Position numbers and translations under genes: made by a program
Shown here: positions 22,932 to 36,082 of the stretch, piece by piece
Layout: each line of letters opens with the position of its first letter
Position numbering within the stretch: the first letter of the stretch is position 1
The notes under the pieces: model-generated
Database searches by the model: none
Told to the model about the DNA's origin: nothing
What the model saw: only the letters and a program-made list of their open reading frames with translations
DNA from: Candidatus Heimdallarchaeum aukensis
Lineage (GTDB): Archaea > Asgardarchaeota > Heimdallarchaeia > Heimdallarchaeales > Heimdallarchaeaceae
DNA: 64,000 nucleotides
Direction of reading: 5' to 3'
NCBI GenBank assembly: GCA_021513695.1
Contig: CP084166.1
Span: 224,001-288,000, forward strand

Positions 22932-23565
22932 TTGAATATGCGAGAAAATGAAGAAATAGAAATTAAAGGAAAAAGTAAAATTAGAAGAATAGCATCTCTT
23001 GATTTTCAAAGAGGATTGGCAATTTGGATGATGGTTTTTTTACACGTCTGGAATCATATTTACGACTTTAGTTGGATAGATTTAGGAACAATATTTCAAG
23101 AAGCAAACTTTCTTTTTGGAATTTGGGTAATTTTCTGTGGATTTTTCGGCGGGTGGGCTGGATATTTCCTTTAATTTCTTCAACAGTTAACGCTTTAGCT
23201 TCTGTGAAAAAAGTAAGAAAAAGTGGAAGTGCTGAAAGAGTTTTAGCAAAGCAAATTCTTACAGGAATAGGGGTTCTTATAGCTGGAAGATTGACAGAAG
23301 CTTTTGGATACTACGGTTATTTTGAAGAGTCTTTAGGTCAGGAAAATCACTTTTTTCGATAGAAACTTGGACCGATACACACTACTACTCTTTTATTTGG
23401 AGAAGAATCTTTATGGTTGAAGCTCTTCAGATTATTGGCTGGGCTATGATAATTAACGCTGTTATTCAATTTTTCTTGATCAAGAATGGAGGAGCAGAAA
23501 AAACGGTAAGAAACTTGATGATTTATGCTTCTTTAGTTGTTCTTGTTGCTACTCCTTTCATATGA
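22932..23565 (+). pseudogene. frameshifted and 3'-truncated DUF1624/HGSNAT-like membrane acyltransferase gene
   Basis: Three consecutive fragments sit in different frames. The first is 22932..23174 (RIASLDFQRGLAIWMMVFLH). The second is 23072..23362. The third is 23413..23565 (MVEALQIIGWAMIINAV..). The total is far shorter than typical family members. Confidence 0.6.
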
Positions 23566-23590
23566 GTTGAAATTTTACTTAATTTCTTCA

Positions 23591-23760
23591 GGACTCTACC
23601 CAACCAGTCAACAAACATATCGAAAGTTGTGAGGACTGGGTTAAGAGAACATGAAAGACACAGTCTTAAGTGAGTTCTCTAAAGGGTTCATCTCCTGATC
23701 CCGGGCACTCATCACTCCCACATGGAAGACCGGGTGTCGTAGGAATGAAACCTACGTCTT
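23591..23760. other. GC-rich structured island (candidate ncRNA or mobile-element scar)
   Basis: Local GC is clearly above the flanks. A nested hairpin spans 23645-23679 (gagaac/gttctc enclosing aagac-aca-gtctt, with AUGA / AAGUGA internal loops). A second hairpin spans 23738-23756 (cgtagg-aatgaaa-cctacg). There is no convincing ORF. Confidence 0.25.
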
Positions 23761-24043
23761 TAAGCATATAGATCAAAACACTAGATAAATGAGAATTGAA
23801 TATATAAAGACTGCAGAAAAGTTGTGACACTTCCCAATATCGTGTATTCTTTATTAATCCAAATGTGCTTCTGGTTGTTCTTGGTCTAATAACTCCACAA
23901 ACTAAAAATTTAGTTCTTTACGTAAAAAAGTATTTCATCAAAACTAAACTTCAGAGAGATGCTAAAATAATGTGGAATGGTTAAATTATAAAGAACTTTC
24001 CAGATCCTAACTCTTTTTTTCTTTTAAAAAAATGAGAAAAAGA

Positions 24044-33552: not shown

Positions 33553-33747
33553 TTATTTCTTTTCTAAATATATTACTTTTTCAAACATATTTGTAAGTGG
33601 TAATAAAACAAAAAGATTACTCTCTTCAGGTAAATTGTCGATAGAAGTGTAGAGTATAAAAGGCGAGTCTTCAGATTCTCTAATCATAATCTTAAAGAAA
33701 GGATTCAGAGAAACAATTTTTTTAATGTCTTCAATAGATATGGTCAT
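33553..33747 (-). CDS. hypothetical small protein
   Basis: 64-aa ORF with no recognisable motif. Confidence 0.3.
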   Translation of the reverse strand: MTISIEDIKKIVSLNPFFKIMIRESEDSPFILYTSIDNLPEESNLFVLLPLTNMFEKVIYLEKK

Positions 33748-33759
33748 GATTTACTTTTT

Positions 33760-34050
33760 TACGTAAAGTTTTTCACACTCTGTCTTGCAAGAGAGAAAAC
33801 TAAAGGAAGTTTAATCTCTTGAACTCAACCAAGCCATACAATGCCATGAAGGGGTTGAGACAGACATCATACACGAATCGTGGGAATCATAAAGAAGAAA
33901 AGAACTAAAAACTCTTTTCTTCACTCCACGAGAGACAAAAAAGAAAGAATTACTCCTATAATAGAGAAGGAGTTAAGTTCTTTTTTGTCTACTGGGGCTG
34001 CAACCAATGGCTGAGCCCTCGGCAAACAGTGAAATGGGAAGAACTGAACC
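33760..34050 (-). ncRNA. candidate omega (re)RNA of the TnpB element
   Basis: It sits where omega RNAs are expected, overlapping the tnpB 3' end and the ~240-nt ORF-free tail. A perfect 10-bp hairpin spans 33894-33922 (gaagaaaaga/tcttttcttc). A 7-bp hairpin spans 33824-33859 (ctcaacc/ggttgag). The palindromes tcttgcaaga and tttacgtaaa lie near the distal end. Confidence 0.4.
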
Positions 34051-35443
34051 TTTGACCAGTGAGGTAATCAGTGATAGTTGTTCCTCGAGGACGAAAAAGA
34101 GCACCAAGGAACTTACGAGCGATATTCATTGCTCCTGTGAGGTCAGAGTGGAAAGTGTAATTGCAAGAGGGGCAATGGACTAAACCTCTAACAGGACGGA
34201 CAACTTTCCTTCCACAACGAGTACAGTGAGAGGATGTCCCTCTTTCCTCTACGGTTAATATTCGATGAGGGTCAAAACCTCTTAATATCAATGCTCGACG
34301 GAGAAGAGTAAGAACTAGAGAAAAGTTCCACTGATGAAGTTTCCTGCGAAACTTACGCGCACTGTTCCCTTTTCCTTTATCTTTTCTCACATTTTTGGGG
34401 TAACCTACGACGACGAAAAGGTCATACCTTCGAGCATAGGTCTCTATCGTCTGCACAACCTCACTTATAAATTGGTGAATATAGGACAGTTTAACGTTTC
34501 TATATCTTCTTCGGAGAAGACTAAGAAAACGATAAACTTGGTGTTTTTTACCCGACTGGTCGTTTAAAGCTGCTTTCCTCTGAAGACGGGAAAGTTTGAG
34601 TTTATATCTATGATTGATTTTATTCCATTGTTTGGTATACCAGAATTTTATTTCTTCACTTGTTAATTTCTTTTTAGGGGTTAGTAACACTCCTGCAGCA
34701 GGAATGTTTATCCCTAGATCTATTCCCAGCACAGCTGGAGGAAGAGAAGAAGAACTTTTTTTTTTAGGAGGATAAAAAGAAGGAGGAGGAAGAACTCTTA
34801 GTTGGAAATACACCCACCACTCATGTGTAGAACGTTTATATCTTAGTTCTAAACTTTTTATTCGTCCTTTCTTTAATTCCTTCTGGTGGAAAGTGCTCAT
34901 CTCTAAAGGCAACCATAACTTCTGATGATATGGGGTATTTCTTTTCCACGTATCTAACGAGTCTCTTATCCCCACCCACCAACGAGCGAGAGTGTTATTC
35001 TTCTCTTTAGGTAAATGGACGAGAACGAACCTCTTTGCATTAATTAGTTGTCTTCTTGCTCTCTTTATTGGAGGACGAGTATTATTAGGTCTATACCCTT
35101 GTTCATATAATTGTACGGCTATATCTCTACACTCTTGAAATTCATTGTGGGAACAATAAGGGAACATTTTCTTCAGATCGTGAGGGACATTCTTTCTTCT
35201 CTCTTCTTCTTTAACTTTTGAAGTAGTTAGCGTCAACTCATCTAGTTTTCCTCTATGCACTCTTATTTTCCCTTTTTTAGTTTTAGTACATATTTTTCTT
35301 CTGTTGTGGTGTATAATTCTCACATACTTTTCTATTATCCTCGTATCTCTTCCCGTTATTCTCCTTAACCTTTCCTTCTTCCTCGTCGTCAATACCTCCT
35401 TCTTTATTCTCACTTTCAAGGTTTTGACGACGTCCTTCACCAT
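33989..35443 (-). CDS. tnpB: TnpB-like RNA-guided nuclease (IS605 OrfB family)
   Basis: RuvC-I LGIDLGINIPAAG, zinc finger CTRCGRKV..CPSCNYTFH and RuvC-III HSDLTGAMNIARKF. 484 aa with a K/R-rich N-terminus. The RuvC-II position reads VVVGYPKNV rather than the expected xxxEDL. Confidence 0.85.
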   Translation of the reverse strand: MVKDVVKTLKVRIKKEVLTTRKKERLRRITGRDTRIIEKYVRIIHHNRRKICTKTKKGKIRVHRGKLDELTLTTSKVKEEERRKNVPHDLKKMFPYCSHNEFQECRDIAVQLYEQGYRPNNTRPPIKRARRQLINAKRFVLVHLPKEKNNTLARWWVGIRDSLDTWKRNTPYHQKLWLPLEMSTFHQKELKKGRIKSLELRYKRSTHEWWVYFQLRVLPPPSFYPPKKKSSSSLPPAVLGIDLGINIPAAGVLLTPKKKLTSEEIKFWYTKQWNKINHRYKLKLSRLQRKAALNDQSGKKHQVYRFLSLLRRRYRNVKLSYIHQFISEVVQTIETYARRYDLFVVVGYPKNVRKDKGKGNSARKFRRKLHQWNFSLVLTLLRRALILRGFDPHRILTVEERGTSSHCTRCGRKVVRPVRGLVHCPSCNYTFHSDLTGAMNIARKFLGALFRPRGTTITDYLTGQRFSSSHFTVCRGLSHWLQPQ

Positions 35444-35569
35444 CTTTCTCTTTTCTCCTTCTTTCCTCTTTTTTTTGTTTCTTCTTCTCTTTTTTATTCT
35501 ACTTTTTTCCCTATAAAAACCCCTCTCCTTCCTCTCCTCTCCTTTCTTTTTTCTCTCTACATTTTCCTC
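35444..35569 (+). repeat. 126-bp polypyrimidine (+) / polypurine (-) tract immediately upstream of tnpB
   Basis: By my count 115 of 126 positions on the + strand are C or T. The tract contains ccctataaaaa (a TATA-like element on the minus strand). Confidence 0.8.
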
Positions 35570-35581
35570 AATAATTGTAAA

Positions 35582-36082
35582 TTACGTAAAAAATAGACGC
35601 ATGCTAGAAGTTAATTTCTTTAGAGATTCAAGAGGTATAGCTGAAAGATTATTTAGAATTGTAAACTCTAAATTCATTTTTGTTAATATTTGACTAAAAG
35701 CAGTTATCCTCTTCCTAGCATTAGACAGATGATCTCGTATGGTTGAAGGGCTATTTTGAGTAAACTTTGCTATTTCTTCTGATTTGAAATCTAAAATATC
35801 GTGAAGATAAAAACAAAGAAATTGTTTGTCAGATAAAACGGAAGAAACAGGATTAATATCAGAAAAATAACCAAGGTTTACTAATTTAGAAACAGTTTCT
35901 AAAAAATCTAATTCTTGAACTTCTTCTTTAATACTATCTTTCCTTTTAAAAGAAAAAAGAATAACTAAGGAAGCTCTTCTAATTTCCATGTTAATGAAGA
36001 GTTTTAAATGTTTAATACTTTCAGGAATTTTGGGTAAAAATTCTTTATGATCTTCATTTTTTACTAGAATCGAAAATTTCAT
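35582..36082 (-). CDS. sigma-70 region-4-like HTH protein
   Basis: LSDKQFLCFYLHDILDFKSEEIAKFTQNSPSTIRDHLSNARKRI fits the r4/LuxR-type HTH pattern. 166 aa. Confidence 0.45.
   Translation of the reverse strand: MKFSILVKNEDHKEFLPKIPESIKHLKLFINMEIRRASLVILFSFKRKDSIKEEVQELDFLETVSKLVNLGYFSDINPVSSVLSDKQFLCFYLHDILDFKSEEIAKFTQNSPSTIRDHLSNARKRITAFSQILTKMNLEFTILNNLSAIPLESLKKLTSSMRLFFT

Follow-up and report, generated by a model that had tools for sequence, protein, structure and literature searches.

A TnpB with an alternative RuvC glutamate on an inverted-repeat element of Candidatus Heimdallarchaeum aukensis

TnpB enzymes with an alternative RuvC glutamate

All Fanzors and the TnpB proteins known as "TnpB2" have proline or glycine in place of the RuvC-II glutamate and an alternative glutamate that is conserved, approximately 45 residues downstream (Jiang et al. 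2023, PMC10530073). Among the clades described as RuvC-II-rearranged ("RIIr"), the largest has glycine for glutamate and a new glutamate on strand beta5, as in RuvX; RuvC-II is rearranged in many branches, and several RIIr branches are almost exclusive to archaea (Altae-Tran et al. 2023, PMC10691335). The alternative glutamate (E-alt) has been defined, with a regular expression (RegEx), as a glutamate six residues before the first CxxC (Yoon et al. 2023, PMC10711439). The E467A mutant of ApmFNuc is inactive, and TvTnpB (E323) of Thermoplasma volcanium is a nuclease that depends on a target-adjacent motif (TAM) and lacks collateral activity (PMC10530073). Cryogenic electron microscopy (cryo-EM) of ApmFanzor2 gave a triad of D324/E467/D501, with the glutamate shifted by 50 residues and a glutamate-to-aspartate spacing of 34 (PMC11832414), and both this cryo-EM structure (ApmFz2) and published AlphaFold2 (AF2) models place the alternative glutamate near the pair of aspartates (PMC11832414, PMC10530073, PMC10691335). 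The subject of this report is a tnpB gene of Candidatus (Ca.) Heimdallarchaeum aukensis, located in a 64,000-nucleotide stretch of contig CP084166.1 (positions 224,001 to 288,000 of the forward strand; hereafter the window, in which all coordinates below are given, with (+) and (-) for its strands). A first-pass annotation made from the sequence alone had flagged the product of this gene as reading GYP where the RuvC-II glutamate is expected. Papers on Heimdallarchaeum genomes make no mention of the family to which it belongs.

Four results assign the product of the tnpB open reading frame (ORF; 33989..35443 (-), 484 amino acids) to the TnpB superfamily: Pfam PF07282 (Cas12f1-like TNB) matches residues 395-441 with E = 1.6e-9 and 38.2 bits against a cut-off of 26.3; NCBIfam guided_TnpB matches with E = 9e-25; the family profile matches solved Cas12f/TnpB chains with E of about 1e-19 in a profile search of the PDB; and the AF2 model (predicted local distance difference test, pLDDT, 83.8) retrieves AsCas12f (3.6e-14), ISFba1 TnpB (5.6e-13) and ISDra2 TnpB (2.4e-11) in Foldseek. 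A single-sequence search against PDB sequences returned zinc-finger noise only. The three motifs that the first-pass annotation quoted as intact are all present, namely RuvC-I (GIDLG, residues 240-244, with the D242 codon at 34718..34720 (-)), the zinc finger of the TNB domain (C407-x2-C410 ... C424-x2-C427, 34163..34225 (-), reading CTRC at 407-410 and CPSC at 424-427) and RuvC-III (HSDLTGAMNIA, residues 432-442, with the D434 codon at 34142..34144 (-)). The RuvC-II region is LFVVVGYPKNVRKDKGKG (residues 342-359), and in profile alignments to Cas12f/TnpB chains its strand FVVVGYP aligns on the canonical hhhMEDL strand; therefore Gly347 (codon 34403..34405 (-)), at the end of strand beta4, occupies the glutamate slot, in agreement with the GYP reading. 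The pair of glutamates that had been placed about 52 residues downstream is E399/E400, 52 and 53 residues after G347, within LTVEERGTSSHC (residues 396-407). E400 (codon 34244..34246 (-)) lies six residues before the first zinc-finger cysteine and is aligned to the proline of the canonical (D/N)-P-x-Y-T-S-Q. In the AF2 model, beta4 spans residues 341-348 and ends at G347/Y348, and beta5 spans residues 395-399, so that E400 is at the C-terminal end of beta5; this strand layout matches the exchange of beta5 for beta4 described previously (PMC10691335). ISDra2 TnpB and Cas12f, which match best in both sequence and fold among solved structures, have the same fold and the same domain order (WED/REC, RuvC-I, helical insert, RuvC-II, zinc finger, RuvC-III) but carry the canonical glutamate on beta4 and proline at the position equivalent to E400.

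A database search returned 277 relatives, of which the closest are "transposases" of Ca. Heimdallarchaeum endolithica and Ca. H. aukensis with 86-91% identity and the more distant reach into Thorarchaeota at 33-36% identity. Over an alignment of 113 full-length relatives, D242, E400, T403, S404, C407, C410, C424, D434 and N440 are invariant, G347 is glycine in 112 (and is kept down to 33% identity), C427 is cysteine in 112, and E399, the first glutamate of the pair, is variable. An exhaustive profile search over 1.84 billion cluster representatives matched 12,494 clusters at E <= 1e-3. Among the 119 top-ranking representatives that align at both positions, 108 have glycine at the beta4 slot with glutamate at the beta5 slot, eight have the canonical glutamate with proline or alanine at the beta5 slot, and none has both glutamates; the first protein with the canonical glutamate appears at rank 109. 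That the canonical and alternative glutamates exclude each other is the pattern expected of compensation, not of loss. The E-alt RegEx, D{P}G x(120,160) E x6 CxxC x(12,18) CxxC x(4,8) D, matches residues 242-434 of the protein and 110 of the 113 relatives. The shift from G347 to E400 is 53 residues and the spacing from E400 to D434 is 34 residues, and this ApmFanzor2-like spacing, together with the RegEx match, makes the relocation one of an already known kind.

The first-pass annotation had left the nuclease as either an inactive, guide-directed binder or an enzyme with a relocated glutamate, and had stated that such relocation is described for some TnpB/Fanzor lineages. The statement is borne out by three studies (PMC10530073, PMC10691335, PMC10711439), and the second alternative is strongly supported by the invariance of E400, the mutual exclusivity of the two glutamates and the agreement with the E-alt definition. 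The predicted catalytic triad of D242 (strand beta1), E400 (end of beta5) and D434 (C-terminal helix) is complete and acidic, with its glutamate in the alternative position. The protein resembles the TnpB2/RIIr enzymes in the glycine at the beta4 slot, in a beta5 glutamate conserved throughout the clade some 45-53 residues downstream and before the zinc finger, in its compact size and in its candidate 3' RNA region, and RIIr branches found nearly only in archaea exist. The relocation is thus real but ordinary: it is known, widespread and biochemically validated in other enzymes, and the oddity that had been flagged is a textbook example of the published alternative-glutamate RuvC site that opens no new question. 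Probably the protein is a functional TnpB with a rearranged (E-alt) RuvC site, carried by a 1,855-bp non-autonomous element with terminal inverted repeats (TIRs) and CATG ends inside a host helix-turn-helix (HTH) gene.

The mobile element and its candidate guide RNA

Nucleotide similarity to the copies of Ca. H. endolithica begins and stops sharply at 33745 and 35599, which delimits a whole mobile element of 1,855 bp (33745..35599 (-)), in which inverted repeats enclose a solo tnpB and a candidate 3' RNA region. A single complete chromosome of Ca. H. endolithica carries 14 loci, of which eight are intact, four are disrupted and two are 3' fragments. Pairwise ratios of nonsynonymous to synonymous substitution rates (dN/dS) among the nine intact copies, the window copy included, are 0.12-0.22; the tnpB copies are under purifying selection. 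As the first-pass annotation had observed, the element is richer in GC than its surroundings, with 38.3% compared to 29.1% in the remaining window. No other stretch of that length in the window has a higher GC content. A large, actively transposing family of E-alt TnpBs is hereby documented in the Asgard lineage closest to eukaryotes.

The left end of the element (CGTCTATTTTTTACGTAATTTA..., 35578..35599 (-)) and the right end (...AAAAAGTAAATCATG, 33745..33766 (-)), which finishes in a terminal CATG at 33745-33748 exactly after which the similarity of the copies stops, are imperfect inverted copies of each other. The left end agrees with the reverse complement of the right end at 26 of 40 positions in the window (CATGCGTCTATTTTTTACGTAA compared to CATGATTTACTTTTTTACGTAA) and at 32 of 38 positions in subfamily 2, the terminal CATG being included in both counts. 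The ends are therefore TIRs of approximately 22 bp with CATG on each side. CATG also stands just outside the left end (35600..35603 (-)), where it may represent the target, a candidate TAM or one of the two copies in a 4-bp duplication; 12 of the 13 copies examined have CATG in this place and one has CATA. A search for the pattern of these ends found three occurrences in the window against 0.06 expected. TnpBs associated with Y1 or serine transposases have asymmetric ends and all those associated with DDE transposases have inverted repeats, and solo TnpBs are apparently mobilised in trans (PMC10691335). These end types, set beside the symmetric ends, point to movement in trans, probably by a transposase of DDE type. 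The element is like the DDE-associated and solo TnpBs of that study in having symmetric ends, the 3' end of tnpB at most 250 bp from the transposon end, and solo copies that carry no transposase.

At 23916-23939 (-) there is a solitary TIR-like site, GATGAAATACTTTTTTACGTAAAG, with an exact 17-mer match to the right repeat of the element. It was considered as a further copy or as a miniature inverted-repeat transposable element with guide RNA and was set aside, since blastn and nhmmer found no more similarity. The GC-rich island at 37750-38800 was likewise considered as a related element or partner transposase and rejected, being a probable DDE-type insertion sequence (IS) gene with unrelated ends; within it, 37854-38792 (+), with a GC fraction of up to 0.44, encodes a protein of 312 amino acids with an N-terminal HTH and DDE/rve-like motifs and is probably another IS. 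The ORFs of approximately 230 amino acids beside tnpB in the distant relatives L015-L017 were rejected as a conserved partner because they are mutually unrelated.

The element interrupts a host gene for a protein with a sigma-70 region-4-like HTH, of which the N-terminal part is at 35600..36082 (-) and the C-terminal part at 33553..33744 (-). The annotated host product of 166 amino acids takes its last five codons and its stop from the left end of the element, and its ORF matches a protein of Ca. H. aukensis (P0121) at 100% identity; a downstream ORF of 64 amino acids starts at the ATG of the terminal CATG of the element. Deletion in silico of the element and one CATG restores a continuous host ORF of 224 amino acids, which aligns end to end with an uninterrupted orthologue of 223 amino acids (P0122) at 75% identity, with no gap at the junction and one gap of a single residue far away. 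In the DNA of this orthologue, (T)ATG occurs once at the insertion site.

Between the left repeat and the start of tnpB is an unusually purine-rich (GA) leader of approximately 130 nucleotides (35445-35580 (-)) that is conserved in all copies. It holds a TATA-box-like sequence, GGGGTTTTTATAGGG (35509..35523 (-)), which is also conserved in the copies and is a candidate archaeal promoter.

The candidate scaffold of an omega/reRNA (33749..34027 (-)) consists of the last approximately 40 nucleotides of the ORF, the 244-nucleotide 3' non-coding region and the right inverted repeat. The 244 nucleotides from the stop codon to the right end and the last approximately 40 nucleotides of the ORF are conserved in 15 of 15 copies. 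The RNAalifold consensus has 68 pairs in nine helices, five of the pairs with compensatory changes; 98.9% of its cells are paired compared to 39-52% in slid controls, 28 cells are changed on both sides compared to at most 10, and the covariation score is 0.105 compared to at most 0.059. No Rfam family was found in the element, or at gathering threshold anywhere in the 64-kb window, and no tRNA genes were found in the window (29% GC). The right inverted repeat falls inside the predicted scaffold. A repeat within the scaffold has been reported for Fanzor1 and Fanzor2*, and a flanking nucleotide for IS607 TnpBs (PMC10711439).

By analogy, the predicted guide-template DNA is the host flank 3' of the right end, ACCATATCTATTGAAGAC... 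(33725..33744 (-)). In characterised TnpB/Fanzor systems, DNA immediately beyond the right end supplies the guide. In the proposed mechanism, the 3' approximately 280 nucleotides, including the right inverted repeat, would be transcribed as a structured omega/reRNA, and the 3' extension of this RNA, derived from flanking DNA, would serve as the guide. The complex of TnpB and RNA would cut DNA that has a CATG-type motif beside a match to the guide, most plausibly the restored empty site, and cutting of the empty site could help to retain or spread the element. The element itself would be moved in trans by a transposase, for which the symmetric ends suggest a DDE type. With its clean boundaries, candidate guide RNA and candidate CATG TAM, the system lends itself directly to testing as a compact nuclease, and E-alt enzymes are reported to act without collateral cleavage of single-stranded DNA.

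Catalytic state, mode of movement and the Fanzor question

Several observations count against a functional enzyme on a transposon-like element moved in trans. The NCBIfam guided_TnpB match scores 87.7 bits, short of its curated cut-off of 100. The spatial equivalence of E400 as partner of D242 and D434 relies on topology and on the structures published for other E-alt enzymes. The five compensatory pairs of the RNA consensus do not exceed those of shuffled alignments (195/500), and independent covariation events are few because the copies form essentially two subfamilies. A duplication of CATG at the target site (target-site duplication, TSD) and a CATG borne by the element look alike here, and no partner transposase with matching ends, whether DDE or other, was found in the window, in which respect the locus differs from DDE-associated TnpBs. 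If the TAM were CATG only, the right end of the element, where CATG is followed by the flank that matches the guide, would be self-targeted. The only hint of discrimination, noticed post hoc, is a base other than T ahead of the left CATG at each of 13 sites, set against T-CATG at the right end; the chance of no T at 13 sites is 0.645^13, or about 0.3%, given a T frequency of about 0.356 in the window. A VCATG-type TAM, itself a post hoc proposal, might spare the occupied site.

The canonical slot is filled by Gly347 and exapted, inactivated TnpBs exist (PMC10691335), from which it could be argued that the protein is a catalytically dead, RNA-guided DNA binder or regulator that has lost its RuvC-II glutamate. 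This is quite improbable: both catalytic aspartates and E400 are invariant in the 113 relatives, the canonical and alternative glutamates never occur together in the 119 cluster representatives, which points to compensation, the gene rides on a multi-copy mobile element instead of an immobilised locus, and activity of E-alt enzymes has been demonstrated (PMC10530073, PMC11832414). Of the two possibilities that the first-pass annotation had left, the inactive binder is the one disfavoured, by the complete predicted triad, by the dN/dS values and by the presence of several intact copies. Frameshifts or truncations in the Ca. H. endolithica copies L007, L009 and L011-L014 might suggest that the window gene, too, is a decaying pseudogene derived from an IS605-type orfB, with GYP as a chance substitution, and the first-pass annotation had named simple decay, or a conserved glutamate at the canonical position, as outcomes that would overturn its reading. 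The window ORF is full length with no private disabling change seen, its dN/dS is 0.12-0.22 against the eight other intact copies, and G347 is kept to 33% identity and in 108 of 119 clusters; neither outcome came about, since the alignment gives glycine at the canonical position, E400 is invariant and selection is purifying. Decay is refuted by the conservation of G347 and E400, and the pseudogene explanation is accordingly given next to no credence. As to mode of movement, a tnpB that stands alone, a specific tetranucleotide 5' of the left end, a 3' RNA region within 250 bp of the end and subterminal palindromes (TTTACGTAAA) would suit an IS200/IS605 element of IS1341 type, inserted 3' of CATG without duplication by a Y1 HUH TnpA encoded elsewhere, and no IS family is commoner in Asgard genomes than IS200/IS605 (PMC13343696). 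That explanation, which concerns mobilisation only, is nonetheless unlikely, for the ends are inverted copies over 22-36 bp including the terminal CATG, with 32 of 38 positions identical in subfamily 2, whereas Y1- and serine-associated elements are asymmetric and DDE-associated elements have inverted repeats (PMC10691335), and no Y1 gene adjoins the relatives examined (L015-L017). ISDra2, unlike the window element, has asymmetric IS200/IS605 ends and a Y1 TnpA, and TvTnpB likewise belongs to an IS605 element with TnpA and asymmetric ends, compared to the solo tnpB and inverted-repeat ends found here. The label of IS605 OrfB given by the first-pass annotation is therefore only loosely right, the symmetric ends not being of the asymmetric IS200/IS605 type.

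The functional E-alt TnpB preferred here shares several features with Fanzors, and the first-pass annotation had held that an Asgard host makes it bear on the relationship between TnpB and Fanzor. Like Fanzor2 and Fanzor1 (ApmFz2, PDB 9b0l; SpuFz1, PDB 8gkh) it has the alternative glutamate six residues before the CxxC; its glutamate-to-aspartate spacing of 34 residues is identical to that of ApmFz2; and Fanzor1 and Fanzor2* also occur in TIR/TSD transposons with the TIR folded into the scaffold of the guide RNA. With the shared E-alt position, the Asgard host, and inverted repeats plus a possible short TSD like those of Fanzor1/Fanzor2* transposons (PMC10711439), one could propose that the family is pro-Fanzor-like and that Fanzors have in it an Asgard relative or ancestor, with the relocated glutamate shared by descent. 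However, in Fanzors, and in the cyanobacterial IS607 TnpBs proposed as their ancestors, E-alt goes together with a DPG motif at RuvC-I (PMC10711439). The window TnpB has DLG, the DPG RegEx matches 0 of the 113 relatives, and the 150 listed cluster representatives all have a hydrophobic residue (L, F, M, I or V) after the RuvC-I aspartate. The window TnpB also differs in having no nuclear localization signal, no intron and no IS607 link: neither a serine nor a Y1 TnpA adjoins tnpB in the window or in the distant relatives L015-L017. Fanzor chains are undetected by the family profile even at E <= 10, compared to 1e-19 for Cas12f/TnpB, and the equivalence of E400 and E467 therefore rests on the RegEx definition and the spacing; in the fold search ApmFz2 ranks 15 and SpuFz1 ranks 41, behind Cas12f/TnpB. 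Furthermore, the published ancestry of Fanzors is from cyanobacterial IS607 TnpBs (PMC10711439) and a rearranged RuvC-II arose in many branches (PMC10691335). The proposed descent is thus very improbable. Because DPG and TnpA are absent, the Fanzors are missed by the profile and their fold ranks are lower, the family gains no special bearing on Fanzor origins from its Asgard host, contrary to what had been suggested, and E-alt in common with Fanzors does not imply kinship when DPG and the link to IS607 are absent.

The Thorarchaeota branch and minor features of the window

The TnpBs of the Thorarchaeota branch have approximately 560 amino acids, are 33-36% identical to the window TnpB and have the same triad with glycine and the alternative glutamate. 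The motif GTTCACTCA lies approximately 100 nucleotides 3' of the stop codon of the Thor-type tnpB and was found at 14 such loci (L020, L021, L023, L024, L026, L029, L032, L034, L036, L037, L090, L094, L098 and L101); it has been reported for the "Cas1H-Asgard" TnpB groups (PMC10691335). L001-L014 lack GTTCACTCA, and a reading of the window element's 3' region did not reveal it. The motif marks the Thor-type branch as a whole, so this branch and the Heimdallarchaeum elements differ in their 3' ends and probably in their guide RNAs. The window TnpB and the Cas1H-Asgard TnpBs, the latter recognised here by GTTCACTCA, are alike in their sequence family (with 33-36% identity across 92% of the protein), in the Gly/Glu-alt triad and in having Asgard hosts, but the Heimdallarchaeum copies lack GTTCACTCA, are approximately 80 residues shorter, have other ends and have no linked large gene or Cas1.

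The Thor-type tnpB is divergent from a giant ORF of 1,400-1,680 amino acids at seven metagenomic loci with a recognisable copy and on three further contigs that were retrieved through the giant ORF itself, with a spacer of 255-265 bp on the three contigs with called genes. The giant ORFs (L019:477-4739 (-), L025:420-4787 (-), L098:6001-10233, L099:6001-11034 and L101:6001-10230) are 24-47% identical between loci, and the giant gene occurs neither in the window nor in the DNA that flanks the H. endolithica loci. For the giant protein, 38 relatives were found in the database; almost all come from organisms named as Thorarchaeota, and all are "hypothetical" and lack Pfam domains. The giant protein itself has no match in Pfam, PADLOC, NCBIfam or PDB sequences. 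It was considered as the published "aCas1", and no Cas1 signal was found in Pfam, PADLOC, NCBIfam or the PDB profile search. An AF2 model of its first 992 residues (pLDDT 77; predicted template modelling score, pTM, 0.80) gave weak RecA/RadA/KaiC-like matches in a fold search, the best with E = 4e-3. An invariant E...GxGxxD...K signature appears, by eye, to be PD-(D/E)xK-like, and the C-terminal region of the protein holds HxxxxCP...HxxCW.

A discrete 7.25-kb unit of tnpB, the giant gene and a gene for 205 amino acids is common to L098 and L101, from two related genomes, where it is 88% identical between unrelated flanks; no convincing inverted repeats were found at its ends. Genes for tRNA (Ala, Glu and Ala) lie approximately 100-700 nucleotides from the ends of Thor modules (L101:11361-11435, L099:11706-11783 and L021:6901-6977), and their positions are hints that the module may integrate adjacent to tRNA genes.

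The symmetric ends in Heimdallarchaeum and the linkage to the giant protein in Thorarchaeota are leads on how TnpB moves between transposon types. A broader reading of both is tentative and rather unlikely to hold in full: the heimdallarchaeial Gly/Glu-alt TnpB, on an element mobilised in trans in cut-and-paste style (with inverted repeats, a CATG duplication and the right repeat in the guide RNA), would be an archaeal counterpart of Fanzor1/Fanzor2* that arose independently of the cyanobacterial pro-Fanzor route, and its Thor sister would be hard-wired to the giant protein, which may be a new kind of transposase or a nuclease that partners TnpB.

Elsewhere in the window, positions 23000-23900 have a GC fraction of 0.34-0.40 and no long ORF. 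Within this stretch, at approximately 23560-23625, a 67-nucleotide piece is 81% identical to L002:7236-7302, which lies outside the TnpB element of that locus, so the piece is a different dispersed repeat or a non-coding RNA. Upstream of the GC-elevated stretch, at 22932-23362 (+), two overlapping ORFs of 80 and 96 amino acids in different frames look like one broken gene for a membrane protein.

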